Source: Candidatus Hydrogenedentota bacterium (GTDB lineage: Bacteria; Hydrogenedentota; Hydrogenedentia; Hydrogenedentales; SLHB01). Taken from it: a DNA stretch of 64,000 nt. Shown here piece after piece: positions 3-41,340 of the stretch (its first letter is position 1; each line of letters begins with the position of its first letter). Position numbers and translations under genes: made by a program. The stretch is taken from positions 276,337 to 340,336 of the forward strand of contig BTWA01000001.1 in NCBI GenBank assembly GCA_045863295.1. Direction: 5' to 3'. Under the pieces are notes generated by a model. It was not told the DNA's origin, did not search any database, and saw nothing but the letters and a program-made list of their open reading frames with translations.

Positions 3-449
3 CCGGTGAACGAAGGAGCGGGGAACTTTCAGGAATTTCCCGGCACGGCGGGTATCGAGAACATCCAGTTTTTCGTTCCCGACTGCACCATACAAGACAC
101 GTTCCTGTTGCCGGTGCCGGACGCGTTGGGCCTGTTGAACGTGGAGCTGATCGACGTCGACCCAGCGTTGACGGTGGTGCCGGTCGACTATCCCGGGTTT
201 CCCGTTACCCCAAGTGGGGATCACATCACGAACACGTATCCGGCGCATGTGTTTATGCCGTCGGGCGAGATGTTTACGGCCGTGAGCGATCGGGAGCGGT
301 ACGTAATTGAAGTCGGCCAAAAGCCCGACGCGTTGCTCTCGAAGCGGTTTATCGAGCCCTCCGGTCCCTACAACACCCTGGCCAACCGCATGGCGCCGGT
401 GGTGATTGAGCTGTATCGCGGCACCGGCCGATCGCGGATGACGCAATGA
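3..449 (+). CDS. 5'-truncated ORF, probably the C-terminus of a GspH/FimT-like minor pilin
   Basis: The frame is open from the window edge and its stop overlaps the next ATG (ATGA 446-449). The call rests mainly on its position before I/J/K-like pilins; the N-terminus is not visible. Confidence 0.45.
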   Translation, partial: PVNEGAGNFQEFPGTAGIENIQFFVPDCTIQDTFLLPVPDALGLLNVELIDVDPALTVVPVDYPGFPVTPSGDHITNTYPAHVFMPSGEMFTAVSDRERYVIEVGQKPDALLSKRFIEPSGPYNTLANRMAPVVIELYRGTGRSRMTQ

Positions 450-913
450 GAAACGAGATGGTCATGGAAATGCACGAAACCGGACGCGGAAACCTTGGCG
501 CCGCGCGGCCCCGCCGCGAGGCCGGCTTTTCGCTGGTGGAGATGTTGATCGCGCTGGCGATATTGCTGGTGGGCGTGGCGGGCGCGTTTCAGTTGTTTCC
601 GCGCAGCATGCGTCAGGCGCGCCAGGCGCAGGAGCTGCAGGCGATCTCCGAGTTGGCGGATTCCAATTTCGGTCGCGTGAAATTCAGCGGCGCTCGGTCG
701 TTGTGGCTGGGCAATCTGGAATTCGATACCGCGCTCCGGCTGGTGAACGGACAGGGCCAGTATCTGTACGACGGGTATGTGACCTCGGTGACCCGCGTGG
801 GCAACGCGGCGGAACAGTACGCGTCGAGCAACTATTTGCAGCGTGTGGTATTCAGCGTGGTGATGCCGGACGGTCGCCGCGAACAGTTCGTGACGTATGT
901 TACGGAACCGTAG
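446..913 (+). CDS. Prepilin-type minor pilin (GspI/PilV-like)
   Basis: Class III signal RREAG|FSLVEMLIALAILLVGVAGAF with Glu5; small size. Confidence 0.85.
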   Translation: MRNEMVMEMHETGRGNLGAARPRREAGFSLVEMLIALAILLVGVAGAFQLFPRSMRQARQAQELQAISELADSNFGRVKFSGARSLWLGNLEFDTALRLVNGQGQYLYDGYVTSVTRVGNAAEQYASSNYLQRVVFSVVMPDGRREQFVTYVTEP

Positions 914-923
914 GACGAACGAC

Positions 924-2078
924 ATGCGGCGGCATTCTTCATATGGTTTTACCCTGACCGAACTGCTGGTGGCCGTGGCCATTCTGGCGGTGGTGTTCAC
1001 GTCGATCGTCGCCATTTTTGTTGCCAGTGTGCGCGCCATGAAGACCAGCTTCGTGGCGATGGACGCCAACGAACTCGCGCGCACGTCATTCACGACGGTC
1101 GAGAAAGATTTGAAGACGCTCTATGCATCGCGCGATTTCGGCCAGTACTACCAATTTCACGGCACGCCCGTGGGGTTCAGCGGCATTGGCCTGATTCGCA
1201 ACACCCGCGCTTCCGCCGATACCTATTCGCAACTTGGCCGCGTGACCTATGCGCTGTTTCCCAACCCGCAGCCGAATGCGGGCACCGAAGGCGATTTCAG
1301 CGGGTTTGACGGCTACTACAGCTACAACGTGGACGCCACCGGCACGCCGCTGAACGTGACCACGATGTCGCTGGTACGTTTTGTGGAGCCGGGCATCACC
1401 TCGCTCGATCATTATCCCCCGGAATTCTGGGAGACGCTGATGACCGATCCCGAGTTCGGCACCGGCGTAGCGGCGGTCCTCTCGACGGCCTGCAACTGCG
1501 ATCCGTTGAATCCGGTCCAGGTGGCGAGCCTTACGCCCGAGCGCGAGACGTTGCTGAACGCCGCGAAGCGATCGCTGTGGGTAAACCTTATGGCATGGCA
1601 GTTCGAGCCCGGCGTGATTGACCCTGATCTGCAATCGCTGAATGTGTGGGACGGGTTGCTGCGGCCCACGTTTACACTCAATCCGGCGGATTACGTGATT
1701 ACGGAATCGATCCGTACGCCCAACCTGCTCGATCCCGCGTACAACCCGCTGGATACGAATCAAGCTTTTTTCTCGTACGGCGTTCAGTACGAAGGGAACA
1801 CGCTGGGCCAGGGGCTGGAGATGCGTCCCTTCTGGCCGCATTGGGCGCGGCTGGACAGTTGGTCCACGCTGGCCAATCTGAGCAATGCGCAGAATATGTT
1901 TGCGGTTCACAGTATTTACTACGGCAATTTGTCGCCGTTTGCGCCGCGCGTGCCCGAGATGGTCATGGTGCGATTCCCGATGACCTTCGCCAGCCCGTAT
2001 CCCGGCGCGCCGGAGTATTCACGAGAGTTGGAAATTATGGTGGATGTGCCCGTGGGGCAGATGCGGAATCCGCAATGA
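924..2078 (+). CDS. Prepilin-type minor pilin (GspJ/PilW-like)
   Basis: MRRHSSYG|FTLTELLVAVAILAVVF with Glu5. ATG 924 follows the upstream stop at 913. A C-terminal PEMVMVRF strand is typical of J-like pilins. Confidence 0.85.
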   Translation: MRRHSSYGFTLTELLVAVAILAVVFTSIVAIFVASVRAMKTSFVAMDANELARTSFTTVEKDLKTLYASRDFGQYYQFHGTPVGFSGIGLIRNTRASADTYSQLGRVTYALFPNPQPNAGTEGDFSGFDGYYSYNVDATGTPLNVTTMSLVRFVEPGITSLDHYPPEFWETLMTDPEFGTGVAAVLSTACNCDPLNPVQVASLTPERETLLNAAKRSLWVNLMAWQFEPGVIDPDLQSLNVWDGLLRPTFTLNPADYVITESIRTPNLLDPAYNPLDTNQAFFSYGVQYEGNTLGQGLEMRPFWPHWARLDSWSTLANLSNAQNMFAVHSIYYGNLSPFAPRVPEMVMVRFPMTFASPYPGAPEYSRELEIMVDVPVGQMRNPQ

Positions 2079-5000
2079 CGATGCAATACGAACATACCCG
2101 CAGGTCCAAGGCGGAGCTTTTCGGACGTGCGTTCCCAAGCAGAAGCTTGGGAACGAGGAAGGAAGGACGTGCGTTCCCAAGCAGAAGCTTGGGAATGAGG
2201 AAGGAAGGACGTGCGTTCCCAAGCAGGAGCTTGGGAACGAGGAAAGAAAATGGGCAGCGCGGGGCGGCCTTGCTGGTGGCCATTGGGATCCTGGCCGTGC
2301 TGCTGGCATTGGCGCTGGTGTTTTTCGGCACCAGCCGGGTGGAACTGCGCACCGCGCAGAACGCGAAGAACAGCGTTCAATCGGATTGGCTGGCGCAAGG
2401 CGCGAGCGCGATGGCCATGGCGACCCTGCAGAGCGACGGCGTGCTGCATCCGACCGCGACCTCGCTCGATCACAAATGGAAGACGCTGTATAACGGCCTG
2501 TGGTTTCTGGGCAAGGATTGGGCATTAAACCCGAGCGCGTCGCACCTTCCCAACGTGCGCGCGGATGTTTTGTACAGTACCCTGAGCGGTCCCGAGGCCA
2601 AGGCTCTGTGGGATCAGGATTTTCTATACATTCCCCGCGAACAGGGCAACTCCATTGCCAATTCCGTCGATTTTACCGGTCCGTTCCTGACGTCGTTCAA
2701 CTTCGCGGACGTGAACGCATTTACCATTGAAGAGCAGGTTCACCAGTGGCTTGGCGGCGATAATCCGCTCAGCAACTGGGGCGCGGACAACAACGGCGAC
2801 GGACTCCTCGATTCCTATTGGCTGCCGATGCCGCAAGACGTGTATTACGGCGGACTGGACGTCAACACCGATGGTTTCATCGACGCCAGCGAGGGCGGCG
2901 ACGGCATCGACAACGATCTCGACGGCGAGATTGACGAGGCTGACGAGTTGGCACTTTTTGTTTACTGGGGCGGGCGCGATCAACTCGACAACGACGGCGA
3001 CAGCCTTGTGGACGAAGGCGACGAACAACGTATCTTTGTGACGGCGCCCATTGTGCAACGCGTGTGGAATCCCGTCGCTGAAGTATGGCTCACCTATACA
3101 TTGCTGCAGGATTTTTCGCCGCTGGTGAACCCGGCCGTTCTTGAGGCCTATGCTGGCGGGACCGTCGGTTCCGCCGCGCTGAGCGTCAGCCCGGCCTACA
3201 ACTCGCCGACCGTCGACGTGCTCGACAACGATTACAGTATGATAGGGAATGATTCCTATGGATACATTTATCTTGACGCAGGAAATGAGGATGAATATAC
3301 GGCGAATACGACAGATGAAATCAACTATCCGAAGAAGTACCACAATATAGGGGACGCGTACAGGTCATTTTTTAATCAAGTTGCGATCAATGATTTGGCA
3401 GATTATTTCCGGCTTGCCAAGCAGTCTGGCTTGATAGATTTCGATCCGCTTGATCCGGATCACCTATTGGGACCGCCGGAGCGGTCGAATTCAGCATTCC
3501 AGGTCACGGCAAGCGGCGAAGCCGTCTGCTCATTGGCGGGGCGCGTGGCCGTGTTGATCACCGACGAATCCAGCCGGGTGAATCTGAATACCGCGTCAGG
3601 CCTTGCGTTGAACGACAACTTTCCCTCGCCATCCAATGCGAATGCGATTCAGTCGCCCGCGGATCCCACGGCGACGGAAGTTACTTTTGCGTCCAATCTG
3701 GGTGCGACGCCCTACGAATACGATTCCCGCGTATTGCCGTTGATCGGCCCGGATCGCGCCACGCGGTTTCCGCAGTTTCGCGGCGGCGTGAACAGCGGCA
3801 ACGGCTTTTCCACCACGACCGGTGGCCCCTATGCCGGCACGGCCGATTCCCTGGAATGGGACATGGCGTTTCCGGGCTTCGGCCGCGTGGACGACGACGG
3901 CAACGCCTTCTGGCTCAGCATCGACGGCATCGACAACGACGGCGATGGGCTTACGGACGAATTTTACGAAGGCATCGACGAACCGTCCGAGTTCCGGACG
4001 TTCCGTCCGTACCGTAACCGGATTGCGGAAAGCGACAACGATCTTTCGCTGCTCGACGACGACGAACTGGTGAACGAGATTGGGGAAGCCGGCGATCAGG
4101 CGTTTCTCATTCGCGACAACATGGAGCAGCTCGATGACATCGGCACGGCGATCACCAGCGGTCTGCGCGATCTCGTCACCGTGCATTCCCGCGATGCGAA
4201 CGAGCGCAATCGCATTTATAGTGGGCTGAACGAGACGCTGGGCGTGCAGGGCGGATCCTCCGACATCAGCGGGTTGAAGCTGGACACGAATTTCTCGTCG
4301 GGCGTCAACATCGCCCAGGCGATCCGCGAGAATTGGTTTTACCCGCGCAGCACCTTGATGATGCATGCAATCAACGTGGGTCAGTTCGGCAACCCAGATC
4401 CAATTCCACTAGTTGCAACGGATCCCCCGTTCACGTCGCCCTACTTCACGGTTGACGATATGCTAGTTGCGAATCCGGTGAATCCACCTACATCTGTACC
4501 AAGTTTTCACGAATTGGGGTCATTTGCTCGTGCGTTGCGTGTGTATGATCGCGCGCTTTTCAACACGCCGTTTGGCGAACTGGTGCGACACTATCCAGAT
4601 CCGGTAAATCCTTACTCTGCGCAAATTCCCTTTGATGGAGACGAACCCTATCATTACTGGATCAATGGTAATTCGCTGGACAACTACGCCGTAGGGTTCG
4701 ATGCGGACCCTGAATTGCGCGCGTTGCAGTTGGGGGCGAGCATTGAGGACTTCCGCGACTCCGACCACACGCGCACGGTGTTGACCTCGACCATGCTGGA
4801 CCATTGGTGGCAGGAAGCCGTGGCGCCGGCGGTGTTGCCGCAGATTGTGTACAAGGTTGCGGGCGTGGAGAGCGTGCGGATCACCGAATTCATGGCGCGT
4901 CCCGTGCGCCGGATGGAAGCGGAGGCGACGGTGAATCCGGTACAGGCCGGTTACTCCATCAATCTCGATCCCAACGTATTCACGGATGCGAGCGCGGGAG

Positions 5001-8000
5001 TGGGCCCGGATTTTGATTTTGCCATTGACTCCATGGCGGCCCGCACGGGGTTTGTGGTGCCCGCGGGCGGGCTTGCGTGGCAGCGCAGGCCCGTGGATCC
5101 GGCCAACCTGAACCCGTTCATCGGATCGGGCACCATGGTGAGCAGCAACGCGCAATTGATCGGCGACACCGATACCGCGCCGACAATTATCCGGCCCAAC
5201 ATTGTCCAATACGAATTTGCTCCGACCACGCAATTGCCCCCCGGCAAGTATTACCTGACCGTGAATACGACCGGCACGGCGGGCGTGAGCAACTCCGAGT
5301 TTTTGTTTGCGGTAAAGGTCGGTCTGAGTTCCTCCGATGGCGGCCAGAGCATTCTGGACGACGCATTGGCGTACTATGCCGATCCGTTGAATCCGAATCT
5401 GGTCGATCCGGTGGCGTTGTTTGGCACCGCGTTGCATGAATCGCCCATTGCGGGCCGCTATAACATGGACTTGCAGGCCGATCCGGTGGTGCCCGGCAAT
5501 TTGCCAAGCGGCTGGGTATTTCTGCCGACGACCGAAGGGCCGCTGAATGCGGAAACGCAATTAGGCGTCACTAACAACCGGTATGCCGGTTACGGCGGCT
5601 TCGTGGGCTACACCGTGGAAGTGCCGTCGTTTCAGCCGGTGGGCCAGCGTTTGAGCTTGTACGTGGCGGTGATGAAGTCGGTCAACAACACCAATGAACT
5701 GGCCCTCAACTTCTTCGACTTCAGCCAGGAACCCGATCACGAGTGGGTGGAGCTGACGAATATTGCCGAGACCGCGGTGGACGTGAGCAACTGGGATCTG
5801 CAAATCAGTCCCGGCGGTTCGCTGGCCGATGGCGGGGTGTTCTCCATTCCCCAGGGCACGACCATCGCGCCGAACGGGTCAATCCTGCTTGCGATGAACA
5901 AATTCGATGCACATGTCGCCGATATCGCGCAGGAGACCCCGGGTTCGGCCGCGTCAGACAACTTGACGGCGTTGTACAACTCCTCGCTGCTGAGTCATAC
6001 CGGCATCGCGCTTGCGCGCACTGTGGGAGGCGCGTTTGATTTCATAACGGAACCGCCCCTTCCGATGTACGATCCCATCGCAAGCGCGGTTGCGGCGTAT
6101 AGCACGGCCGTGCCCCCGAACAGCGTGCCCATAGCCGATGACATTGGCGCGCAAAGCATGTTCCTGCGCCGTTCGGATGCGGACTTTCTGGACAACGACG
6201 GCGACGGTCGCGACGATGGCGCCAATGCCGACGCCCTGATCGAGTCTTCGCCCAGCGGAGCGGGATCGGGTAATTTGAATTTCAACGGTCTGGCGACCGG
6301 CGGCACCAACAAGGCATGGGACCGGATCGTGCAGCTACAGTCCCCGGCATTGTCCGTGAATTCGCTGGAGCGGCTGGCGGCCGTGGTATTGGGTGGCGGA
6401 TTCCTGCCGAACTATCCGGAGTTCGACATCGTTGACAACGACAGCGACAACGGGTTGCTGGTGAACGACGGCATCGACAACGATGGCGACGGCGGGATCG
6501 ATGAGGCCGATGAAGGCGTTGAAGAAGGGCGCTTCCGGCGCATCACGGCGGGCCAGAGCGTGCCCGGTTCGTACAGCGCCACGCCCGTGGCCTATAACGT
6601 GCCCGGGTTCACCGATCGCGAGTATATGACGAACCTGGACGGGCCGCCGGAATTCAAGGCGTTCGTGGAACGGCGCTATTTCCCCGGCGAGAACGCCGTG
6701 GTCACCTTGTATCAGGGGGCCGAAGAACTGGGCCGCGTGGTGGATCGCGTCACCTACAACCAGAAAGACGTGGAGAACCGCGCGATCCACGACATCCTGG
6801 ATTGCCCGTATCCGTTGGCGGCCCGGTTGGACGGCGCGACGGCGGGATTCTGGCCGGATAATACGATGGGCGTGGATTTTTACCGTTCGCTGCAGCGCAA
6901 ACATCCGTTGTATCCCGGCGATATGTTTGCGACAAGCAACCGCTGGGAAGCGACGGACGGCAACTACGACGATTGGCACGAGGGCACGAACCGCTGGCAC
7001 TACAACGGCACGACGTTGGTGTCGCGTTTGCAGGGCGCGAGCAGCGGATTCGATTCGATCGACTACGCGCAGTTGTACGGGCATGGTTTCTCCGGCGCAC
7101 CGCTTCGCGCGAAGCATTTCCAGCGTGAGTTGATGCTGCATCAAATGGACTTTTTCCCGCTGGTCAATCCGGGGCAGGAATTCTGGGGCTTCCTGACGGC
7201 CAAAGTGCGGAACCGCACGCTGGGTTCGTCCGGCGATCTGCTTACGATGCCGCAGATGATTTTGTGGAAGTACATGGATTACCCGCAGGCGGCGACGCTG
7301 ACGGCATTCCCGATGGGGCTGGATGCTTTGCCGTTGAACGGGGCCGTGGGCGGGCGTTCCGGTCCGCTGCTGGGCAACGCCTATCCGAAGGATATCCGGT
7401 CGGTGTTGGCCGAAACCACGACCGATTCCATCACGCTGGCCGTGGGCACGGCGGGATTCTATCCGCTATGGCCGACGCCGTCGATGACTTTGGCCGATAA
7501 CGACGCCGTGTTGTGGGACGTGTCCGGCAACAACATCAACGCCGTGACGCGGGGCTGGGCTCCGGTATTCCTGTATTCACTGGACCCGGCGGGCACGGAA
7601 CCCCCCAACACCATCATCAGCAACGGGTCACGGTATCCGAATCTGCCTGCGTCGTATCCAATCCAACTGAATTTTCTGTTGAATCCGTCGTTGCCGCCGG
7701 CGTTCACAAATTTTGGAGACGTGGCGGCCAATCTCATTCCGCGTTGGCCGTTGCCGCAGCGCGCGGTGATGTATGTCGCGGCGAATCCGGCATCGTTCGA
7801 TCCGCGACTTGCGGAACAGGAAATGATCGCGTCCGGCGCGGGCGATGTGTTGAACGATCTCAGCATTCCGGCGGATTCGGGCGCACCGTTCAATGCGCGC
7901 ATGCCTTCGGAATCGCTGTTCACGTGGTCTGGCGATAACGCGGTGCCTAACGGTGAATACGACGTGTACGTGGCCTCGGGCAACTACCTCGATGGCAACC

Positions 8001-9067
8001 GCATGGTGAATTTCCAGGCTGGCGGCCGGTTATCTCTGTTCGGTCAGGCATTCGCCAACGTGGCGAGCGACGCGACCGCGCAATCCTTGTTCAATGCGGG
8101 CATGTTGTTCTCCCTGTTTCAGGCGGAGAACGCGGTGCCAACCGATCTGCGGGTAGACGTGGCGGTCTTTACCGATCGCGACGGCGACGGGCGTGTCTGG
8201 CAGGACGACGGCGACAACGAAGTCACGCGCGACGATTTGAATCCCGCCGAGAACATTGGCTTAAAGCGCGGGTTGGAGCCGAATTCCAACGGATACGAGA
8301 CGTATGTGCATTACGGCACGGTGCGGGTGGAGAACAATTTCCTGGCGGTGTTTGTGCGCAATTGGGCGGGGCCCAACCAGGTGAACCGGTTCTCGCGCGT
8401 GATTTTGTCGCCGCGGAGGCACACGCCGGGCCGCATCAACATCAATACAGCGATCACCAAGGTGCGGAATCTGGGCGGGTCGGCGATTCCGTTCAATCCG
8501 CTGTTGGGTATCCCGGGCGTTCTGGGCCAATACGACATTGCCACCGGGTTCAATGCGCGCCCGGTGTCCGACACGACGTTAATCAGTCCGCTGACCGTTG
8601 CCTGGCAGGAAGCGTATTTGCTGTTGACCGGTACGGCGAGCACGGAAGGCATCATGCAGACGCGTGGCGCGCGCGACAACAACGGCGTCTTCGAGTTTCG
8701 TCCGGACGGGCGGTATTACCTGTTCCCGTCGGAGTTGGTGGCGCGGGGCGATTTGGATGCGTATGCGCGGATGGATCGGTTGGAGCTGTATCCGCGGGTG
8801 TTGTCTCCGAACGCGCCGACGTTGGGCGGATCGGAAGATGTGGTCACTGGCAACGAGATCCTTGCGTCCCAATTCGAGGAAACCAAGGAGCGGTTTTCGC
8901 GCATGGCGGCGATGGTCACCACGCGATCGGACGTATTCGAAATTGTGGTGACCGCGCAAGCCGGGTTCGCGACGGATGAGAACGGCGACGGGGTGGCGGA
9001 TTGGACGAGCGACGAGTTTGTGGTGCTCGGCGAGAAGAAGTTGCGGACGGTGTATGAGCGGCCGTGA
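2075..9067 (+). CDS. Giant GspK/PilX-like minor pilin (~2330 aa) with DxDxDG Ca-binding loops and lamin-tail-like segments
   Basis: ATGA coupling at 2075. QRG|AALLVAIGILAVLLALAL lacks Glu5, as in GspK/PilX. GspK-type motifs ITDESSRVNLNTA, GRININTA and TTRSDVFEIVVTAQ; repeated DGIDNDGDG..DE; EWVELTN...VDVSNW. Confidence 0.85.
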   Translation: MTMQYEHTRRSKAELFGRAFPSRSLGTRKEGRAFPSRSLGMRKEGRAFPSRSLGTRKENGQRGAALLVAIGILAVLLALALVFFGTSRVELRTAQNAKNSVQSDWLAQGASAMAMATLQSDGVLHPTATSLDHKWKTLYNGLWFLGKDWALNPSASHLPNVRADVLYSTLSGPEAKALWDQDFLYIPREQGNSIANSVDFTGPFLTSFNFADVNAFTIEEQVHQWLGGDNPLSNWGADNNGDGLLDSYWLPMPQDVYYGGLDVNTDGFIDASEGGDGIDNDLDGEIDEADELALFVYWGGRDQLDNDGDSLVDEGDEQRIFVTAPIVQRVWNPVAEVWLTYTLLQDFSPLVNPAVLEAYAGGTVGSAALSVSPAYNSPTVDVLDNDYSMIGNDSYGYIYLDAGNEDEYTANTTDEINYPKKYHNIGDAYRSFFNQVAINDLADYFRLAKQSGLIDFDPLDPDHLLGPPERSNSAFQVTASGEAVCSLAGRVAVLITDESSRVNLNTASGLALNDNFPSPSNANAIQSPADPTATEVTFASNLGATPYEYDSRVLPLIGPDRATRFPQFRGGVNSGNGFSTTTGGPYAGTADSLEWDMAFPGFGRVDDDGNAFWLSIDGIDNDGDGLTDEFYEGIDEPSEFRTFRPYRNRIAESDNDLSLLDDDELVNEIGEAGDQAFLIRDNMEQLDDIGTAITSGLRDLVTVHSRDANERNRIYSGLNETLGVQGGSSDISGLKLDTNFSSGVNIAQAIRENWFYPRSTLMMHAINVGQFGNPDPIPLVATDPPFTSPYFTVDDMLVANPVNPPTSVPSFHELGSFARALRVYDRALFNTPFGELVRHYPDPVNPYSAQIPFDGDEPYHYWINGNSLDNYAVGFDADPELRALQLGASIEDFRDSDHTRTVLTSTMLDHWWQEAVAPAVLPQIVYKVAGVESVRITEFMARPVRRMEAEATVNPVQAGYSINLDPNVFTDASAGVGPDFDFAIDSMAARTGFVVPAGGLAWQRRPVDPANLNPFIGSGTMVSSNAQLIGDTDTAPTIIRPNIVQYEFAPTTQLPPGKYYLTVNTTGTAGVSNSEFLFAVKVGLSSSDGGQSILDDALAYYADPLNPNLVDPVALFGTALHESPIAGRYNMDLQADPVVPGNLPSGWVFLPTTEGPLNAETQLGVTNNRYAGYGGFVGYTVEVPSFQPVGQRLSLYVAVMKSVNNTNELALNFFDFSQEPDHEWVELTNIAETAVDVSNWDLQISPGGSLADGGVFSIPQGTTIAPNGSILLAMNKFDAHVADIAQETPGSAASDNLTALYNSSLLSHTGIALARTVGGAFDFITEPPLPMYDPIASAVAAYSTAVPPNSVPIADDIGAQSMFLRRSDADFLDNDGDGRDDGANADALIESSPSGAGSGNLNFNGLATGGTNKAWDRIVQLQSPALSVNSLERLAAVVLGGGFLPNYPEFDIVDNDSDNGLLVNDGIDNDGDGGIDEADEGVEEGRFRRITAGQSVPGSYSATPVAYNVPGFTDREYMTNLDGPPEFKAFVERRYFPGENAVVTLYQGAEELGRVVDRVTYNQKDVENRAIHDILDCPYPLAARLDGATAGFWPDNTMGVDFYRSLQRKHPLYPGDMFATSNRWEATDGNYDDWHEGTNRWHYNGTTLVSRLQGASSGFDSIDYAQLYGHGFSGAPLRAKHFQRELMLHQMDFFPLVNPGQEFWGFLTAKVRNRTLGSSGDLLTMPQMILWKYMDYPQAATLTAFPMGLDALPLNGAVGGRSGPLLGNAYPKDIRSVLAETTTDSITLAVGTAGFYPLWPTPSMTLADNDAVLWDVSGNNINAVTRGWAPVFLYSLDPAGTEPPNTIISNGSRYPNLPASYPIQLNFLLNPSLPPAFTNFGDVAANLIPRWPLPQRAVMYVAANPASFDPRLAEQEMIASGAGDVLNDLSIPADSGAPFNARMPSESLFTWSGDNAVPNGEYDVYVASGNYLDGNRMVNFQAGGRLSLFGQAFANVASDATAQSLFNAGMLFSLFQAENAVPTDLRVDVAVFTDRDGDGRVWQDDGDNEVTRDDLNPAENIGLKRGLEPNSNGYETYVHYGTVRVENNFLAVFVRNWAGPNQVNRFSRVILSPRRHTPGRININTAITKVRNLGGSAIPFNPLLGIPGVLGQYDIATGFNARPVSDTTLISPLTVAWQEAYLLLTGTASTEGIMQTRGARDNNGVFEFRPDGRYYLFPSELVARGDLDAYARMDRLELYPRVLSPNAPTLGGSEDVVTGNEILASQFEETKERFSRMAAMVTTRSDVFEIVVTAQAGFATDENGDGVADWTSDEFVVLGEKKLRTVYERP
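2123..2248 (+). repeat. 3 x 42-bp tandem palindromic (REP-like) repeat, in frame within the prepilin leader
   Basis: Unit GGACGTGCGTTCCCAAGCAGAAGCTTGGGAACGAGGAAGGAA starts at 2123, 2165 and 2207. It contains the stem CGTTCCCAAGC/GCTTGGGAACG and encodes GRAFPSRSLG(T/M)RKE x3. Confidence 0.95.
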
Positions 9068-15200: not shown

Positions 15201-15823
15201 TCGGCCTGACGTTGAGCCAGTTTGCCATCCAGGCGCCGAACTGGCAGCGGTTCTACCTGACCGGGGCGGCCGCGCCGGACACCATCGTGAAGCCGACGTT
15301 CTGGCACAACCAGATAAGCACGGGCAATCCCGAAGCGATTGATGGCGACGAGATCACGTTCGGCCAGTCCACCATCATACCCATGGTGCCGGAATCGCAG
15401 ATCGGGCAGCGGGAAGTGGAAGCGACCTTTGAGTTGTTGCCCGTCCGACCCAGGGACATGGAGCCGTCGAAGCGGATCTACATGGTGTGGCAGCTGCTTC
15501 AGAACGGCGTGGTCCTCATTCCGCCCGATTTTTCAAATCCGCTCACGCCGGAAGAACTGTTGGATCCGGATCTGAACCCAATTCGACTGGCCCTGGATGA
15601 AGGCGTCGCGTTGGGCGATCCAGCCCGGTTGCTGCCGTATACTTATGTCTTTCAGGCGGCGGCGTTTGTCGATGAGAACAACAACAGCCTGTTCGACAAC
15701 CAGGATTATGTGGATCCGAGTCCCGCCTCCGTGCTGTTTGTGGTGACTCCAACCGACATTGCCGGGTTTGTACGGCCGCCCGAAAGCGACGAGCAGCCCA
15801 TCAAAGAAACGGAAACGCAGTGA
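9269..15823 (+). CDS. Giant secreted protein with right-handed beta-helix and multiple IPT/TIG domains (adhesin-like)
   Basis: Sec signal (ALCFSASVAWP). Beta-helix repeats ISRCYISGN, LVNCSIVKN, ILHCSILYN, VRNSLVYRN. IPT starts PDTGPVAGGITVIIKG, HGPSAGGNIVAVYGANF, PLDGPVEGGTTVTITGRNF. Confidence 0.8.
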   Translation: MRKGYRNHTGGYWAGWIALLALCFSASVAWPQDVVVCQTGDCGSYTQDFDNLEEGVIEAIRRARTSGNQYVTVFLVERADGAAWEGGFGIPADANIAILGVPLDADGGRSNDIEITGTGSLPALTISTEPGDLPVDAQYFGGAGTGLRIEGVALVNSTEGLVIKGDVATGDYMPVISRCYISGNASSIATEGNGVRVEGEASPLLVNCSIVKNENAGVLVTGTEGAFAEILHCSILYNEMYGVHVTGTTNNARVRNSLVYRNGNEPDGTTDANDHGGLVWDTNPFIDPDTGPVAGGITVIIKGFDLTSPLINPGNSDTNTHIFFGPMHHPDTEAVTWVLTSRDGTTGFEVLTVTLPPSYLGAPGPVDVTIQRVDTGQIQTVRNGFVYVADGGEAPVVMQVIAEHGPSAGGNIVAVYGANFEEHCDVFFDFEGSIGSISVAEQCEFVEWLSSGHLIVKVPEYIDLGGNRRKVDVLVRNNTTGIISDTGQYREYEYRIDEDDLLRPVVVQIVPNYFRDLEGTDGAQNLLADVEVWDAEPGATIKVGGILCPYEERVRISTSDTPPVDVTDPENAELWELHNVRIPVAEFGSGGSYDVEVTNPTGLYDILPRAFTYYPDGVERFEPNERGWRPSNFVRRDGGLLGTLPFRLLGTGFDWEIAIRVLGNSGFGGSFPVLPNPPLRVFPHEVDPPHARHTQREVFFNFPPAPEQAPFLFNPGTGFLNVTINNVATATGDYSSTDVQDVEERFFYSSALEEPTVGDRSLYFEIELPLVVDAGNGPNGRDIITMTVLNWRNAMRVYVADTAVTKYLDGGADGFSDTDPDADQNNPSDNVPDFAEPAVGTTGTIQFEAPRQPQGVAGPVDVWILLPDDATAHNTQAADLYYYAEKSYSVRPEARPIVRAVVPRTPPEDTFTDDNPVRVLGSNFVGPVDPAGWFTNIWLDWGDGTNLTDGNEISLGPVSGAPGAGAPPTGTYQVNSFNEIEFTLDLPTLRSTNPLLLSDVPVTVVAALMNAAGAVYQYNGSDLSFILTDALSFESLAPIIDDVTPLDGPVEGGTTVTITGRNFFPDGTTPPYVRFGGREARVLTATPGVSGSPDVIEVESPPAHLNLPATVAIQLISVDSTVPKLREAVSEKEWWFTYFMDGKPQLRSMSPNHMAFDDTFTQYATLTGLNFDDVVIVRFLDAADPTDIRAERTMYSESPTTIQVKLPLPGELVTESEVNGFNKALLVTVQNDSSKTLVDAQAQDLISNPVLFTVFDDSIGDLEPQTATLLFNDVFWNQQDYVNVHPGEGSISVDPLLDPGPDGEVGPRLVLTDSDTWWLGKLALGRESISGIVDNPLRDKAGEFTLVPFSSEDLELEVRPDSANGFGTQGNGEFGSQDTAQRGLPDIGADEINDFPDDQCLWYYARVFPSPVGRLDAGELQIDIRLIGSTDAPEVYIVPQGFLPADVVADPPIPLSLQATLGENAYRYTNDEPIPLAEDGNLANPDDPDEPIVDGHATLIITCGGTIIGADPSDLTEGGLIFDQAITGRHFLIDTVPPRMFVEYLVPGNTAVGVQQLIFDASGITVGGLPSIDVFPPTTDYTDQITALSVEPLYHPFPATPAVLGTIPPLNWTPATDFMPQDYGGVIDLALRGTQGAQVFFNRGSQANPDFAASPVLVEFPIGVRFVDPPVTNDETLPLDSAMRINGDDFFTSSDIRQVSGFPVLAEAYAQYARFRVVSSTGQEQYFVDRASGSPRQDVVPQNGTAADAAEVADAVIGNEGVFDPGLVPGDSVPDPASVENPENDQMLGLWNIRWDRSYDTSADPTGPYHVSLQFEAEDLAGNVTRQEMLLDPLQLWWFQNVQSRLSPSREGRRVNSANFTLSLERTDAPIVNGGPPPIFMYRVWQGGPDFVNDYNAVYTPVSGWSVWSPDLLINTVEGLVQPEHWVLVVVQSADEAGNVEPWPNFDVASGGLRPDPDAAIDFSDPDTLNTYLYPEYVGLTLSQFAIQAPNWQRFYLTGAAAPDTIVKPTFWHNQISTGNPEAIDGDEITFGQSTIIPMVPESQIGQREVEATFELLPVRPRDMEPSKRIYMVWQLLQNGVVLIPPDFSNPLTPEELLDPDLNPIRLALDEGVALGDPARLLPYTYVFQAAAFVDENNNSLFDNQDYVDPSPASVLFVVTPTDIAGFVRPPESDEQPIKETETQ

Positions 15824-17362: not shown

Positions 17363-17388
17363 AACAATTGTCAAAGGGGATTTTACTC

Positions 17389-17417
17389 TTGACAACGGCC
17401 TTTTTCTTTAATACACT
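17389..17417 (+). promoter_or_regulatory. Sigma70-type promoter for the pilMN-O-P-Q block
   Basis: TTGACA (17389-94), 17 bp, TACACT (17412-17), in an AT-rich gap 140 bp before the pilM ATG. Confidence 0.7.
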
Positions 17418-17556
17418 GGAATCAAAGATTTAGGTACCCTTTTTCTGGTGTTACAGGGCAGTATTTACCCTGTGGCTTGGGATTAGTCGTGAATGCTTGC
17501 ATGCCAAGGCGTTGAGTGGGGGACGTAACGGCCGCGAGCGCCGAAAAGGTGACACC

Positions 17557-19857: not shown

Positions 19858-19921
19858 ACCGTGTTGATGTCCAAGGCAGACCGTTTGTCGTGGCCGGTTT
19901 AATGCGAGTGGTCAAACTGAC

Positions 19922-20953
19922 ATGAAGCGTTCGCAGATAATGATGATAGTCGCCATCGTGGCCGTAGCGGCCGCGCTGGGTGCGGTATACAAATTCTACG
20001 TGCTCGAACGGCTGACCAAATTCGCCTCGGACGAGAAGTATCTGACCGCGCTCAAGACCAAGTACGAAAACATCAGCAAGACCTTTCACGGCACCAAGCC
20101 CGAAGTGGTGGTCGAGGCCTACGCCAACAAAGTACAGCCGTGGCTGGCCGCACTGGATGCCCGGACGGATTACTACACCCTTGGCGGCATCCGCGACATT
20201 GAACCGATTCCCGAGGGCGAAGACGCCCGCTGGTATTACATTCGCAAGGCCCCGGACATGGTGAGGACGATCCAGGAGACGGCGTACAAGCAGAACATCG
20301 GCGTGCCGCCCGATCTCTGGTTTCAATCGCCCCAGCCTCCCCGGCTGCAGGGCATCACCGTGGAAAAGCAGCACGTAGAACGCTGGCTCCAGAACATTCA
20401 AATGGGTTCCGGCATTGTGCAGCAGTTGCTCGATGCCAAGGCTCTGCGGGTCGATGCCATTGAACTGTGGCCCCGCCGGGAAGGATCGTTGCTGTACATC
20501 TATCACGTAGGCGTGAAGATGTGGATGAACATGGAGCAACTGGCCACGTTTCTCAACGATATGCTCAGCGATCGCCGCCGTTGTTTCTTTGTCGACAACA
20601 TCCGTATCCGGAATCCGTACGTGTTGTACGAGAATCCTCCGCTCCAGATCGATCTCGTGTATACCATGTACGAACTGAAACCGACGGCAGACAAAACCAA
20701 GCTTGCCGCTCCGGCCGCGGCTGCGCCGATGATTGCCAGTGCGGCACCGGTTACGCCTGCGCCGGCCGCGACGACGCCGGGCGTCACGCTTCCGGGCGCC
20801 ACGCCGCCCCCGGCCGCCGTGCCGGGTCTGAATCCGGAAGCGGCCGCGGCGCTGCAACAGGCGGCAAGCAGCCGCGATGAAGAGCGGACCGCGCGCCAAA
20901 GCCAGGGCAGCGGCGACTTTTTGGATTGGATATTGTCCTTCTTCCCGTTCTAA
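19922..20953 (+). CDS. PilO/GspM-like inner-membrane assembly protein
   Basis: N-terminal TM and coiled coil; MNMEQLATFLNDM...FFVDNIRI ferredoxin-like pattern; position after pilMN; Ala/Pro-rich tail. Confidence 0.6.
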   Translation: MKRSQIMMIVAIVAVAAALGAVYKFYVLERLTKFASDEKYLTALKTKYENISKTFHGTKPEVVVEAYANKVQPWLAALDARTDYYTLGGIRDIEPIPEGEDARWYYIRKAPDMVRTIQETAYKQNIGVPPDLWFQSPQPPRLQGITVEKQHVERWLQNIQMGSGIVQQLLDAKALRVDAIELWPRREGSLLYIYHVGVKMWMNMEQLATFLNDMLSDRRRCFFVDNIRIRNPYVLYENPPLQIDLVYTMYELKPTADKTKLAAPAAAAPMIASAAPVTPAPAATTPGVTLPGATPPPAAVPGLNPEAAAALQQAASSRDEERTARQSQGSGDFLDWILSFFPF

Positions 20954-21025
20954 TCGGGAAGCAGGTTGAACGATGGAACACAGTACAGATAGCGCGTACG
21001 GCGGAAAAACCGGGCCAAGGTAGCC

Positions 21026-21562
21026 ATGGACCAGATACAAAAATTCGGATTGATGCTGTGGGCGGTCAAGGAAAAGATCGTCCTGGCCTGCCTGGTCGCG
21101 ATCCTGAGTTGGCAGGTGTACAAGGTGGTCATGAGCGCCAACGGCGCCGATGCCGGAGTATCCGTCGGGCCGGTGACGCCGCCAAAGCCGGAGTTGACCG
21201 ATTTGCAGGCGATCGGAGCGGAATCGCCGGGGCCGCCCCCGGAGCCGATTCGGGTGCAGGAATTTACGGCCCTGGTCCGGCGCAACCCGTTTACGGTGTA
21301 TGGCAATGAGGCTGGCGAATCCAGCGGCTCCACGCAAGTGGAAGAAAAGCTGGATCTGACGCTTGAACGCATTGTTCCCTGGAGGGACAACACGGTACGG
21401 GCACAGATACGCACCAAGACATCGCGCGCAGAACCTTATTACGAAGGTCAGTCCGTGGAGGACTTCAGAGTGGACAAGATCGATGCGGAGAAGCAGGAAG
21501 TGACCATCTTTTCCTTCAAGCATCAAAAGCAGTTCGTTTTGAAAGTCGGACAGACCAGTTGA
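21026..21562 (+). CDS. PilP/GspC-like protein
   Basis: TM anchor, Pro-rich linker, RRNPF motif and YEGQSVEDFRVDKIDAEKQEVTI beta domain; directly before the secretin. Confidence 0.65.
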   Translation: MDQIQKFGLMLWAVKEKIVLACLVAILSWQVYKVVMSANGADAGVSVGPVTPPKPELTDLQAIGAESPGPPPEPIRVQEFTALVRRNPFTVYGNEAGESSGSTQVEEKLDLTLERIVPWRDNTVRAQIRTKTSRAEPYYEGQSVEDFRVDKIDAEKQEVTIFSFKHQKQFVLKVGQTS

Positions 21563-21619
21563 GCGGAAGCAGAATCTTTTTGTAGTATTGACCGATAATC
21601 GCGGGAGGAATGTAATCCA

Positions 21620-24600
21620 ATGAATGGTCGACGGATGCGGAAGGCCGCCGGAATGTCGTTGCTGTGCCTGCTCGTGGCGGCAATGACGGTATACGGCGGA
21701 GCGTTGACTGCCCAGGCGCAGGGGGCATCGGGCGCCGTGGAAGCTCCAATTGTTACCGAGCCCCAACCCACCGCCGCGGAGAGCGGTCCCGAACCCCAGG
21801 GCGTGAGCCCGGCGGACGAGGCCTACAATGAAGGGGTGGCTCTCTACAACCGGGGCATGTTCCTGGAGGCCTTGAACAGTTTTAACAGGGCCCTTGCGAA
21901 CGATCCCAATCATCCTCACGCGAAGACCATGGCGGAACGCGCCCAGACGAAGTTACAGACCACGGCCGTAGGCCAGGAACCGGCTGTGCTTCAGACGTTC
22001 GAAACCTTCGAAGCCAAGCCCGCGGAATCGGAGACGACTTCCGATGCAGGCATTCCCGAATCGGCCGAAGAACTCCGCTACCAGACGGTGAAGGAACTGC
22101 TTGAGCAAGGCCAATTCCTGCTGGAGAACCGCAAGTTCGAACGTGCCCAGAAATTATTCGAGCGCGCCCTGATTATCGATCCCGAGAACAAGACCGCGGC
22201 CCGTCTGCTGCAAGAAGCGACAATCGGCACCTTTGACGAACGGCTTCCCCGCGAATGGCAGAAACTGGAAATCGACCGCCTCCGCATTCGCGAAAAGAGC
22301 GAACAAATCAAGCAACTCCCCGACGGCGCGGACGCATACGGCATCAAGGACATCACCATCAGCGTTCCGGTCGCCGAAGAAGAATTTGTCCGTGAAGAAG
22401 AAAAGACCGACATCGAAAAAGCGCTGGATGAATTCGTCTCCATTGAATTCGAAGAGGAACACATCAGCAATATTCTCGATTACATCGCGGAATACGCGAG
22501 CATCAACATCGTGCTCGACAGCCGCGTCGTAGACCCGCCGCGCCAACCGGTGCCGCAGGTCCAACCCGGCGTACCGGGCACAGTTCCCGGCGGCGTTCCC
22601 GGAATTCCCGGGCAGCCCGGTTTTGGCGCGCCCCAACCGTTCGGCGTTCCGGGTCAAGGATTTCAGCAACCAGTTCCCGTGCAACAGCCGGCCTTCGAAC
22701 CGACCGGCGATCCCGATGAAGATCGCCGGGCGTCTCGTCGAGGCGGCGGCCTCGGCAACATTCAGTTGCAGGGCGTCAACGGCCAGTTTGCGACCGGCCC
22801 CGGCGGCCAGCCTGTGTCGGATATCGTTTCCGACGGGTACACGGGCATCTTGAAATTGGATGACGTGCCTCTTCGCGATGCCCTCAAGGCTGTGCTCCGC
22901 CCCCTGAATCTTGATTTCAGCGTGCAACCTGGTTTCCTGTGGGTGAGCACGGCCGAAAAGATTCGGACCGAATCGTTCGAAGAAATGGAAACCCGCATCT
23001 ACGAACTGAAAAATGCGGGCGCGGAAACGCTCTTCAAGATTGTCGTGCAGAACCCCGGCGGACTTTCCGGCGGCGGCGGTGGCGGCTTCGGCGGCCAAGG
23101 CGGCGGTTTTGGCGGCCAGGGTGGTTTTGGCGGCGGTCAAGGCGGTTTTGGTGGCGGTGGCTTTGGTGGTCAAAGCGGCGGTTTTGGTGGCGGTGGTTTT
23201 GGCGGCCAAGGTGGCGGTGGCTTCGGCGGCGGTGGCTTTGGCGGTCAAAGCGGTGGTTTTGGCGGCGGTGGTTTTGGCGGCCAAGGTGGTGGTGGTTTTG
23301 GCGGCGGTGGCTTCGGCGGCGGTGGCTTTGGCGGCGGTCAGGGTGGTTTTGGCGGCGGTCAAGGCGGTGGCTTTGGCGGCGGTCAAGGCGGTTTTGGCGG
23401 TGGCCAGGGCGGTTTCGGCGGCGGCTCCATCCAGGTCTCCAATATCTCCCAACTGTTCTCCAACATTAACGACCAACTCGTCGGTGAACCGCCTGCGGTC
23501 ATTGGCATCAGCACGGTTGGCACAGGGCTCGATGCGCGCCAGGGTCAGCAAGGAGCGGGTTTGGGTGCAGGCGGCCGGCGTGACGACGAGTTGGGCGGCG
23601 GCGGCCTCGGCGGCGGCGGTCTTAGCGGCGGCCAGACGGTCGGTACTTCCGGCACGGGATCCAGCTTGGGCAGCTCCGGCGGCTTGGGCGGATTCCAGGG
23701 TCAAGCTGAATTGCTGACCATATTGCAGAGCGCCATTCCCGAGATTGTCGAACCGTTCACCGACGAAGTGTTGTCGTGGATGATCTTCAATCCCACAACC
23801 AACCAACTCATCGTGCACAACACGCCCAGCAATCTGAAGAAAATGGAAGCGATGATCCAGGATCTGGACATTACGCCGAAACAGGTCAGCATCGAAGCGA
23901 AGTTTTTGGCCATATCCGTGACGGATCTCGACAAGATCGGCTTCACGTGGGACCTGACCCTGAGCGATCAGAACAGCCGCAATCGCGTTATTGACGCCAT
24001 CGAAACGCCCGGCGTCTCCGATGCGGACGGCAACCCCGGCTATTTTGCCGATGTCAACGGCGACGGATCGAACGAGATTCTCCCGTTCTATACGCGTCCC
24101 GACGGCACCAACGTAATTAACAACACCGTATCCACCCTTACCGGTACAGGCGCGGTGAATCCCGGACCCGACGGCACGTTTGACCTGAATGCGGTCATCC
24201 TGCAAAACGAGGACGGCGATCAATTGAGCGTTATGATGGACTACCTCAACAGCCTGACGGAGACCGAGTTGTTGAGCGCGCCGCGCGTGACCACGATGAA
24301 CCGCAAACCGGCGGTCATCGCGGATATCCTGACGCAGACGTTCCAGACTCAGGTCTTCCAAGAAATCATTGTGAGCGATTCCGGGTTTGGCGGCGGCGAA
24401 ACGACTGCCTCGGTGCAGCAACCACAATTCTCCACCTTTACGTTCGGTATCGTGTTGTCCGTTACACCGCAAATCAGCGGCAGCAATCAGGTCCGGTTGT
24501 GGCTGAACCCGCAGGTGACCACGCAACAGGGACAAGACGAATTCATCGCGACGTCCACGGTGGACGGAAACACGCAAACCGCGACCATCCGTTTCCCGCG

Positions 24601-24847
24601 CGTGTCGATTCAATCCGTCTGGACCAACGTCATCGTGAACGACGGCGACACGCTTGTGCTGGGCGGGCTCATCACGGATCGCACGACGCGCGGCAAGACC
24701 AAGATGCCGTACGTGGCGGACATTCCGGTGATCGGCTACTTCTTCCGTGGCAAGTCGACGGAAATCACGCAATCGAGCCTGTTGATCTTCACCACGGTGA
24801 ACATCATCGATCCGACCGGTGCACGCTTCTTCGAAGCGGGCGCATAG
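21620..24847 (+). CDS. Outer-membrane secretin (PilQ/GspD family) with N-terminal TPRs and a Gly/Phe-rich insertion
   Basis: Signal peptide and TPR helices. N3 motifs ETRIYEL and LIVHNTPSNLKKMEAMIQDLD-PKQVSIEAKF. Secretin motifs LLSAPRVTTMNRKPAVI, VLSVTPQI, GDTLVLGGLI, VADIPVIGYFF. Confidence 0.93.
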   Translation: MNGRRMRKAAGMSLLCLLVAAMTVYGGALTAQAQGASGAVEAPIVTEPQPTAAESGPEPQGVSPADEAYNEGVALYNRGMFLEALNSFNRALANDPNHPHAKTMAERAQTKLQTTAVGQEPAVLQTFETFEAKPAESETTSDAGIPESAEELRYQTVKELLEQGQFLLENRKFERAQKLFERALIIDPENKTAARLLQEATIGTFDERLPREWQKLEIDRLRIREKSEQIKQLPDGADAYGIKDITISVPVAEEEFVREEEKTDIEKALDEFVSIEFEEEHISNILDYIAEYASINIVLDSRVVDPPRQPVPQVQPGVPGTVPGGVPGIPGQPGFGAPQPFGVPGQGFQQPVPVQQPAFEPTGDPDEDRRASRRGGGLGNIQLQGVNGQFATGPGGQPVSDIVSDGYTGILKLDDVPLRDALKAVLRPLNLDFSVQPGFLWVSTAEKIRTESFEEMETRIYELKNAGAETLFKIVVQNPGGLSGGGGGGFGGQGGGFGGQGGFGGGQGGFGGGGFGGQSGGFGGGGFGGQGGGGFGGGGFGGQSGGFGGGGFGGQGGGGFGGGGFGGGGFGGGQGGFGGGQGGGFGGGQGGFGGGQGGFGGGSIQVSNISQLFSNINDQLVGEPPAVIGISTVGTGLDARQGQQGAGLGAGGRRDDELGGGGLGGGGLSGGQTVGTSGTGSSLGSSGGLGGFQGQAELLTILQSAIPEIVEPFTDEVLSWMIFNPTTNQLIVHNTPSNLKKMEAMIQDLDITPKQVSIEAKFLAISVTDLDKIGFTWDLTLSDQNSRNRVIDAIETPGVSDADGNPGYFADVNGDGSNEILPFYTRPDGTNVINNTVSTLTGTGAVNPGPDGTFDLNAVILQNEDGDQLSVMMDYLNSLTETELLSAPRVTTMNRKPAVIADILTQTFQTQVFQEIIVSDSGFGGGETTASVQQPQFSTFTFGIVLSVTPQISGSNQVRLWLNPQVTTQQGQDEFIATSTVDGNTQTATIRFPRVSIQSVWTNVIVNDGDTLVLGGLITDRTTRGKTKMPYVADIPVIGYFFRGKSTEITQSSLLIFTTVNIIDPTGARFFEAGA
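23069..23425 (+). repeat. Low-complexity coding repeat (GGFGG/GGQ)n in the secretin
   Basis: 119 codons of almost only G/F/Q/S, with 18 FG dipeptides. Confidence 0.95.
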
Positions 24848-34814: not shown

Positions 34815-34824
34815 AGGAGCGAGA

Positions 34825-41326: not shown

Positions 41327-41340
41327 TCCCAATTGGCGAA

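Follow-up and report, generated by a model that had tools for sequence, protein, structure and literature searches.

In the model of beta-strand addition at the tips of type IV filaments put forward in 2026 (Ellison et al., PMC13533445), PilC/PilY1 donates its last ~10 residues to PilK and so completes the PilK beta-sheet in trans; MshQ is predicted to act alike, while in GspK and CpaL the strand comes in cis from the protein itself. The article further states that filaments without a tip adhesin tend toward large insertions in their K homologue, and that the K homologue is enlarged in the competence type IVa pili (T4aP) of Thermus and Vibrio cholerae. The idea of large or modular tip pilins is already established. 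Here, we describe a gene cluster from a metagenome-assembled genome of Hydrogenedentota, most of which lies on a 64,000-nucleotide stretch of DNA (i.e., the window; G000:C1:276337-340336), and in which a GspK-like pilin of 2,330 residues (K) is followed by a second giant protein of 2,184 residues (BH). We consider it likely that a complete pilus machine, retractile and type IVa-like, is encoded here as a hallmark of the phylum, with the giant K at its tip and a function that we infer from its genes. What is new is the combination of a 2,000- to 3,300-residue K on a GspK scaffold, a PilT-bearing machine, a giant protein other than PilY1 with a conserved tail peptide, and a lipoprotein with the fold of formylglycine-generating enzyme (FGE), found phylum-wide.

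With GspK/XcpX, K shares a pilin helix without Glu5, a strand followed by an "NLN" motif, an "NINTA" helix-hairpin-helix motif, and an "S-D-V-F" strand, all in the same order, and its gene likewise follows those of pilins I and J. It differs from them in length (2,330 versus ~355 aa), in its place within a PilM/PilT machine, and in apparently ending without the conserved "FRILDWRVIR"-type last strand. Like CpaL/TadG of the Tad system, ComZ of Thermus, and the competence K homologue of V. cholerae, K appears to be an apical subunit enlarged by inserted domains; according to PMC13533445, those subunits have ~550 to 600 residues and no separate tip adhesin, whereas K exceeds them four- to fivefold in size and has another giant protein encoded after it. 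Another parallel is offered by modular pilins (Raynaud et al., bioRxiv 10.1101/2021.01.27.428410), i.e., a pilin with grafted binding modules that is expected at the tip. The extreme reported in that survey is 860 residues, whereas the K homologues have 2,000 to 3,300, with modules inserted inside the fold and not appended to it; K would escape the survey as described there because it has no IPR012902/N_methyl match. BH, in turn, resembles PilY1/PilC and MshQ (PMC13533445) in being large, secreted, and encoded directly after the K gene, and in having a variable N terminus, a conserved C terminus, and an end peptide of ~10 residues. Unlike PilY1/PilC, BH has no beta-propeller and carries predicted immunoglobulin (Ig)-like sandwiches instead.

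The cluster occupies ~32.5 kb of one strand (G000:C1:268652-301180), and the window carries its distal two-thirds (Table 1). The gene order is PilB1, PilT, PilB2, PilC, a 265-aa pilin, H, I, J, giant K, BH, a PEGA-FGE lipoprotein, a PilM-PilN fusion (PilMN), PilO-like, PilP-like, and a secretin with tetratricopeptide repeats (TPR). Between window positions 3 and 24847, the list of open reading frames (ORFs), together with Pfam and NCBIfam, gives ten co-oriented ORFs on the + strand, and both their positions and their identities agree with the first-pass annotation, which had been made from the letters of the window. The start ATG of K overlaps the stop codon of J. The same annotation had remarked that genes for an ATPase, PilC, a major pilin, and a peptidase are not in the window. 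This is literally correct, but the machine is not incomplete; PilB1, PilT, PilB2, PilC, and the 265-aa pilin are encoded 0.7 to 7.7 kb upstream of the window on the same strand, and the sole prepilin peptidase found in the genome is on contig C25. Since the motor, platform, and pilin genes adjoin the window upstream, the cluster encodes a complete machine, which the window boundary merely cuts. At the downstream end, the locus is limited by the secretin, after which KdtA and an ABC transporter follow.

The PilB pair scores 604 and 603 bits on the PilB model TIGR02538 (cut-off, 675.65) and almost as much (586 and 588 bits; cut-off, 630) on the GspE model, and both paralogues carry the MshE-type cyclic di-GMP (c-di-GMP) motif NF053729 (55.8 and 62.1 bits; cut-off, 38). 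The PilB1-PilT-PilB2 trio (L010:11653-16418; G000:C1:268652-273414) is kept in 8/8 relatives with 65 to 90% identity. Two extension-type ATPases flank PilT within a single pilus cluster. In the I pilin, the matches to PilV, GspI, and Verru_Chthon B cover the N terminus only, and the match of the J pilin to Verru_Chthon C has the same limit. A "NLIPP" motif and a transmembrane helix follow the PilM part of PilMN, and its PilN match is weak (18.7 versus 22.8 bits; E = 0.0019). Sub-threshold matches to T2SSM_b were obtained for 3 of 7 sequences from the PilO position (E = 0.009 to 0.15), while none of the 7 sequences from the PilP position matched any family; tblastn found homologues of each of these two genes in 5/8 relatives. 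The secretin scores highest on the PilQ model TIGR02515 (149.9 bits versus a cut-off of 284), followed by GspD (140.4 versus 351). It contains a Gly/Phe stretch (GGFGGQ-like) that is dense over residues ~470 to 600 and Gly-rich to ~700, reaching up to 75% Gly over 60 residues. A Gly-rich region is also present in the secretins of 5/5 relatives with varying partner residues (i.e., G/M/Y, G/S/Y, or G/N/F), which indicates that composition rather than sequence is conserved there.

The first-pass annotation had described a mixture of type II secretion system (T2SS) and T4aP features, and the family searches bear this out, since K is GspK-like and PilC exceeds the GspF cut-off, yet PilT, PilM, and a secretin scoring best as PilQ are present as well. 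Its cautious comparison with Verru_Chthon cassettes also proved apt. In those cassettes, too, a K-like protein of very large size closes a series of pilin-like genes (1,296 positions in the protein A model), but only positions 1 to 58 of the 1,296 match, and K is not a member. The scores are confined to N-terminal helices and lie far under their cut-offs (TIGR02600, 39.2 versus 332.3 bits; TIGR02599, 24.2 versus 256.5; TIGR02598, 17.5 versus 51.4; TIGR02596, 25.5 versus 70), and we found no paper on a "Verru_Chthon cassette" in the literature. The Amuc_1098-Amuc_1102 cluster of Akkermansia is similar in that its PilM-like protein extends into a PilN-like part (NF045709, positions 5 to 486 of 608, 245 bits) and in having a related secretin (NF042912, 122.6 bits), but neither score comes near its cut-off (650 and 750, respectively). 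A giant K is not known from that cluster.

The cluster is a hallmark of the phylum Hydrogenedentota and is conserved almost phylum-wide. K was found in 38 of 41 relatives' genomes, with open frames of 2,000 to 3,339 aa, and the three genomes without it are 85%, 95%, and 63% complete. Among 81 genomes sampled from the phylum, 74 contain K at an E value of ≤1e-10 (63 of the 68 high-quality ones), as does one of the two sampled genomes outside the order. All named K homologues come from Candidatus Hydrogenedentes, with the exception of one fragment labelled "FCB group", in agreement with the lineage-specific filament machine proposed in the first-pass annotation; the full-length ones are annotated as "lamin tail domain-containing" or hypothetical. 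K and BH are each single copy in the source genome.

Gene order was compared in eight relatives with long contigs. The order PilB1, PilT, PilB2, PilC, pilin, H, I, J, K, BH is held in all eight, although in one of them (G039) H and BH were seen solely as ORFs in place; by tblastn, H was detected in 7/8 and I and J in 8/8. The block from PilMN to the secretin follows BH in 6/8, while in the other two (G024 and G018) BH is the last gene before a break in the cluster, and KdtA comes after the secretin in all five loci that extend that far. Of the 22 relatives with a BH match, 18 have BH immediately downstream of K on one contig and in the same orientation; the assemblies of the remaining four are fragmented, none of their contigs carries both genes, and one of the four gave no K match. 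The C-terminal region of BH was detectable in 21 of 24 genera of the same family. Since both non-pilin genes, i.e., BH and the PEGA-FGE lipoprotein, are syntenic in relatives, neither of the outcomes that the first-pass annotation had named as contrary to its reading was found.

The homology of K was assessed against the canonical GspK of the same organisms. A complete canonical T2SS (gspD-E-F-G-H-I-J-K-L-M; L010:1-11217) stands head-to-tail before the pilus cluster, and its GspK in the source genome has ~355 aa and both Pfam T2SSK domains. Canonical GspK was found in 41/41 relatives, and in at least seven of them (G005, G010, G011, G015, G017, G035, and G039) it lies within ~20 kb of the giant K on the same contig. 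From 30 loci, we kept 20 full-length sequences (10 were dropped) and added that of the source genome (n = 21), and we used hhalign to align this GspK family with the two ends of the K family, N-terminal and C-terminal. Four matches were obtained, all collinear, of which the last two are short (Table 1). Because these matches occur in the same order in both families, K is a GspK homologue with three insertions of ~355, ~1,600, and ~130 aa, whose N- and C-terminal segments would be expected to meet in one pilin fold. A comparison of the whole K family with one GspK sequence, which aligned the helix only (probability, 11%), is superseded by this family-versus-family run. The predicted cleavage site of K, QRG/AALLVAIGIL (the slash marks the cut), has Val at +5 and no Glu5, and the consensus of 31 homologues, "RGAALxIAxAI", likewise lacks Glu5. 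A search for shorter K relatives gave 37 matches, mostly on short contigs and several of them partial, among which no complete form of normal size was recognised, five matches on long contigs being left out.

The very large K-type pilin claimed in the first-pass annotation stands, and its insertions point to binding modules. Seven strict DxDxDGxxD motifs occur in K and none in BH; they may be putative calcium-binding loops. Residues 1131 to 2330 were modelled with AlphaFold2 from a 46-row alignment (mean pLDDT, 57.6; i.e., modest quality). Foldseek gave no match to this model at an E value of ≤0.001, and a weak match to the lamin Ig fold (E = 0.07; probability, 0.99; 54 columns). The modelled jelly-roll resembles carbohydrate-binding modules (CBMs): its best fold match is CBM86 (6sgf_A; Z = 8.1; rmsd, 3.0 Å; 126 aligned residues), at a level (Z near 8) that can reflect a mere common fold, and many CBM6/35/36/61 rows appear among the fold matches. 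An ESM Atlas search with residues 1400 to 1700 returned no usable match. At its C-terminal end, K stops directly after the second of two long modelled strands with "...RTVYER", an ending kept in 9/9 loci and in the 31-sequence consensus. In the canonical GspK sequences of the phylum (21/21), a variable loop and then a conserved "FRILDWRVIR"-like last strand are found. K may lack the last GspK strand; a hairpin is conceivable for the segment EFVVLGEKKLRTVYER, which the model renders as a single long strand.

BH homologues range from 1,044 to 2,214 aa, with a variable N terminus and a conserved C-terminal region of ~900 aa. In a model of the last 925 residues of BH (29-row alignment; mean pLDDT, 64.8; again of modest quality), this region is a chain of Ig-like beta-sandwiches without a propeller. 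Foldseek returned 97 matches at an E value of ≤0.001, including CfaE, cadherins, the Ig domains of PrgB, SiiE, and extenders of RTX adhesins; their low TM-scores are expected because such chains are flexible. No match to the PilY1 beta-propeller family PF05567 was found in BH, so that the position of PilY1 is indeed taken by an unrelated architecture, as first annotated; a genome-wide search with PF05567 also gave nothing, but the control genomes were silent as well. In 29/29 aligned homologues, which have only 23 to 42% identity, a Gln lies 8 to 11 residues from the C terminus within the pattern Q-P-[I/F/V]-x-x-x-E-x-x, and in the model the last 14 residues are disordered, with a pLDDT below 50 in the tail. 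Since this ~10-residue tail is conserved in all 29 homologues, docking of BH on the tip in the manner of PilY1 and MshQ is conceivable. A complex prediction for K residues 58 to 520, K residues 2020 to 2330, and the BH tail domain gave ipSAE values of 0.00 and 0.00 (mark, 0.32), which speak neither for nor against binding.

The PEGA-FGE lipoprotein keeps the lipobox Cys in 6/6 orthologues. It matches the PorK chains 9mzu and 9ots at 62.7 bits and scores 96.8 bits on TIGR03525 (PorK/GldK), far under the cut-off of 350. Like PorK/GldK of the type IX secretion system, it is a lipoprotein with the FGE fold but without FGE chemistry, encoded inside the cluster of an envelope-spanning machine; unlike PorK, it contains PEGA domains, lacks a PorN-like partner, and belongs to another machine. 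In the two split clusters, its gene is directly upstream of pilMN on a contig other than that of K and BH. Its gene is thus linked to pilMN rather than to K and BH, and we tentatively take the protein for a structural accessory in the envelope conduit.

On the basis of these genes, we propose that the shared prepilin peptidase would cut the pilins and that I, J, and K would assemble on the PilC/PilMN(O,P) platform into a priming complex, with H also among the fibre-priming pilins and K in the apical position. The two PilB paralogues, predicted to bind c-di-GMP, would push the growing fibre out through the secretin in a c-di-GMP-controlled way, with PilT responsible for its retraction. The inserts of K (i.e., the DxDxDG loops, the lamin-tail Ig domain, and the CBM-like jelly-roll) would make up a large adhesive head, probably for glycans or cell surfaces. 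Whether BH is carried at the tip, with its ~10-residue tail adding a beta-strand at the K/J interface as in PilY1, PilC, and MshQ, we judge to be an even question. Somewhat short of that, we tentatively assign the lipoprotein to the PilMNOP-secretin conduit as an accessory without catalytic function on the periplasmic side, which may form rings as PorK does. Twitching or attachment to polysaccharides or cell surfaces would be the most economical function, with prey contact or DNA uptake as conceivable alternatives. A further, doubtful extension is a two-protein head of about half a megadalton, in which K would have lost its donor strand and be completed in trans by the BH tail, and the PorK-like lipoprotein would be a new conduit part needed to pass the head.

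The tail of BH would have no partner if K supplied its terminal strands in cis, as GspK, CpaL, and ComZ do. K would then be the sole tip adhesin, and BH an independent adhesin, possibly a T2SS cargo, that is merely co-regulated. The ends of the two pilin families bear on this directly. Canonical GspK has a conserved last strand and K ends after two strands, which fits a trans donor from BH but is not proof; 40 residues follow the shared "VFEI" anchor in the giant K versus 37 in canonical GspK, so K may hold all terminal strands in cis and leave no slot for the BH tail, a count that tells against the docking of BH. A secretion route for BH would be at hand in the T2SS encoded directly upstream, whose GspK occurs in all 41 genomes and repeatedly near K, and BH itself combines an ordinary Sec signal peptide with the beta-helix/Ig architecture of an adhesin. 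According to PMC13533445, filaments without a tip adhesin also tend toward large K insertions. Mere co-regulation, however, sits poorly with the position of BH right after K in 18/22 relatives, including two in which the pilMNOPQ half has moved away, and the invariant, disordered end peptide (29/29) would have no obvious role in a T2SS cargo; moreover, the K model has only two terminal strands. We consider this alternative rather doubtful. Less probable still, and in our view improbable, is that the cluster builds a competence pilus for DNA uptake or a secretion pseudopilus, with the giant K binding DNA or cargo. In its favour, K retains the "NINTA" motif, of the helix-hairpin-helix type, that GspK has; PilC scores just above the cut-off for GspF; there is a match between the 265-aa pilin and the N terminus of GspG; and PMC13533445 describes an enlarged K in the competence T4aP of Thermus and V. 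cholerae. Against this, a dedicated PilT sits between the PilB genes in 8/8 relatives, a separate canonical T2SS is already present in the genome, the cluster contains no comEA or comEC gene, and the modelled K insertions look Ig/CBM-type and not like DNA-binding folds. A dprA gene (DNA_processg_A; 35370 to 36311, - strand) lies 10.5 kb downstream of the secretin, but it is on the opposite strand past unrelated genes, and the link is too weak.

For the lipoprotein, the competing explanation is a periplasmic modifying enzyme with K, BH, or the pilin as its substrate (e.g., by oxidative or thiol-based chemistry). Its FGE-sulfatase domain is strong, its nearest PDB and NCBIfam matches include the enzymes FGE, EgtB, OvsA, and CalU17, and one Cys ("RC") is kept in 5/6 orthologues. 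Yet both catalytic Cys residues of FGE are missing, with Thr and a gap at their positions in the alignment with the solved structures 6muj/2q17, and the CxxxxC pair is absent from 6/6 orthologues. EgtB-type enzymes require an N-terminal DinB domain, and the lipoprotein has none. Non-catalytic lipoproteins with the FGE fold exist (PorK/GldK and GldJ), and the gene travels with pilMN and not with K and BH. An enzymatic role is thus unlikely in our estimate, and we prefer a structural one.

Several observations weigh against the proposed machine and its tip as a whole. For the relation of K to GspK, the model NF037980 reaches 40.4 bits on residues 61 to 137, far under its cut-off of 130, and the Pfam GspK models PF21687 and PF03934 do not match K even at an E value of ≤5. 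The profile of 31 K homologues had no match among PDB sequences at an E value of ≤1, GspK is absent from the listed fold matches of the model of the C-terminal half, and the pilin core is split by ~2,000 residues; the modest quality of both models belongs here as well. For the machine, the equivalog cut-offs of PilB, PilQ, and GspD are all missed, and the PilO and PilP labels are positional, from position and topology alone, so that of the PilO-like and PilP-like genes in the first-pass annotation the presence and place hold while the names do so in that sense only. For the conserved tip, the C-terminal region of BH was recognisable by sequence in only 1 of 16 genomes of other families. A full-length orthologue of the lipoprotein was not found in G010, which makes it dispensable at least there.

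Table 1. Features of the pilus cluster. Coordinates are positions in the window unless stated otherwise; residue numbers refer to the named protein.
Feature	Length or residues	Coordinates	Strand	Basis and remarks
PilB1-like ATPase	628 aa	upstream of window	+	TIGR02538 (PilB) 604 bits; first of trio
PilT	372 aa	upstream of window, between the two PilB genes	+	TIGR01420 468.5 bits (cut-off 319.1)
PilB2-like ATPase	583 aa	upstream of window	+	TIGR02538 603 bits
PilC	417 aa	upstream of window	+	GspF model 429 bits versus cut-off 424, just above
Candidate major pilin	265 aa	upstream of window	+	N terminus matches GspG
H, GspH/FimU-like minor pilin	303 aa (C-terminal 148 aa in window)	3-449; start G000:C1:275874 (ORF L010:18875-19786)	+	N_methyl 21.1 bits; weak GspH, E 0.0075
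I, GspI/PilV-like minor pilin	155 aa	446-913	+	cleavage motif G/FSLVEM; N_methyl 36.2 bits
J, GspJ/PilW-position minor pilin	393 aa	897-2078	+	cleavage motif G/FTLTEL; N_methyl 25.5 bits
K, GspK-homologous, predicted tip pilin	2330 aa	2075-9067	+	NF037980, hhalign, consensus of homologues; conserved end ...RTVYER
REP-like (repetitive extragenic palindromic) element, three tandem 42-nt copies		2118-2250	+	in frame in K leader, upstream of QRG/AALLV
Pilin helix and "TSLDHxW" block of K	58-135	2246-2479	+	= GspK 10-108; probability 95%, E 3.4e-8
K strand and NxN ("NLN") motif preceding alpha-domain, VAVLITDESSRVNLNT	491-506	3545-3592	+	= GspK 122-137; probability 34%, E 4.4e-4
Lamin-tail (Ig-like) domain of K	1217-1303	5723-5983	+	PF00932 35.1 bits (cut-off 34.3)
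Beta jelly-roll of K (modelled)	~1783-2115	7421-8419	+	model pLDDT mostly 64-92, dips 38-55
Helix-hairpin-helix motif of K, GRININTA...FNPLLGIPGV	2111-2149	8405-8521	+	= GspK 237-269; probability 78%, E 1.8e-5
"S-D-V-F" terminal strand of K, weak anchor	2278-2290			= GspK 306-318; E 0.097, probability not meaningful
Two long terminal beta-strands of K, DENGDG loop between (modelled)	2287-2328	8933-9058	+	model positions 1157-1169 and 1185-1198, pLDDT 72-80
BH, secreted adhesin-like protein	2184 aa	9269-15823	+	signal peptide; Beta_helix 147-264 (right-handed); IPT/TIG domains; C-terminal Ig-like sandwiches
BH C-terminal tail, SDEQPIKETETQ		15785-15820	+	conserved peptide after variable acidic linker; candidate beta-strand donor
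PEGA-FGE lipoprotein	472 aa	15944-17362	+	lipobox VSAC; three PEGA; FGE-sulfatase PF03781 182.4 bits
PilM-PilN fusion	786 aa	17497-19857	+	PilM_2 168.5 bits; TIGR01175 176.8 bits; long low-complexity C-terminal region
PilO-position bitopic protein	343 aa	19922-20953	+	N-terminal transmembrane helix; sub-threshold T2SSM_b, E 0.15
PilP-position bitopic protein	178 aa	21026-21562	+	position and transmembrane helix only
TPR-secretin	1075 aa	21620-24847	+	Secretin 105.8 bits; TPR_2; weak PilW match

The leader of K contains a repeat that reads three times "GRAFPSRSLG(T/M)RKE", and the ~30-nt core of the underlying palindromic element recurs at seven other sites of the genome, on contigs C61, C32, C2 (twice), C8, C9, and C62. 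Since the leader of K homologues has ~8 aa, translation of K may in fact begin at a TTG further on; alternatively, the repeats are cut off together with the leader. Elsewhere in the genome, a second locus with PilM (415-aa frame) and a secretin (1,122-aa frame) is found at G000:C28:75139-81507, and the genome totals are nine PilT-like and nine PilB/GspE-like genes, including those of this cluster; together, these indicate that the organism runs several type IV filament systems. Downstream of the cluster, the kdtA/waaA gene for Kdo transferase (24819 to 26186) overlaps the end of the secretin gene. The region from 32619 to 44181 is a cell-wall sugar recycling block that encodes a fusion of a beta-lactamase fold with a NamZ exo-muramidase (731 aa), a BadF-type kinase-SIS (etherase-like) fusion (741 aa), a SpoIID-SPOR protein, AnmK, and a GH123-like protein of 946 aa, with NagB/Pgl-like and acyltransferase genes further on; its content suggests scavenging of peptidoglycan fragments. 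At 57438 to 59684 (- strand), a Ser/Thr protein kinase of 748 aa is fused to a WD40 beta-propeller.

Hydrogenedentota is a widespread uncultured phylum. We found no literature on pili of this kind in Hydrogenedentota/Hydrogenedentes or on lamin-tail pilins, and in the Hydrogenedentota genome papers that we checked, pili are absent from the main text, while one supplementary table lists KEGG pilus genes (pilQ in 152 genomes). The giant K proteins are the largest cap pilins that we found mentioned, the largest modular pilin of the 2021 survey being the one of 860 residues. The same genomes hold a canonical GspK with its last strand and a giant paralogue that appears to end one strand earlier, and they therefore offer a natural test of the cis-versus-trans model of beta-strand addition put forward in 2026. 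If K is completed by the BH tail, a second, independent family of adhesins would have adopted beta-strand addition at the tip. The FGE-fold lipoprotein may be a new pilus accessory. Given its conservation almost throughout the phylum, the cluster is probably central to the attachment or movement of these cells.

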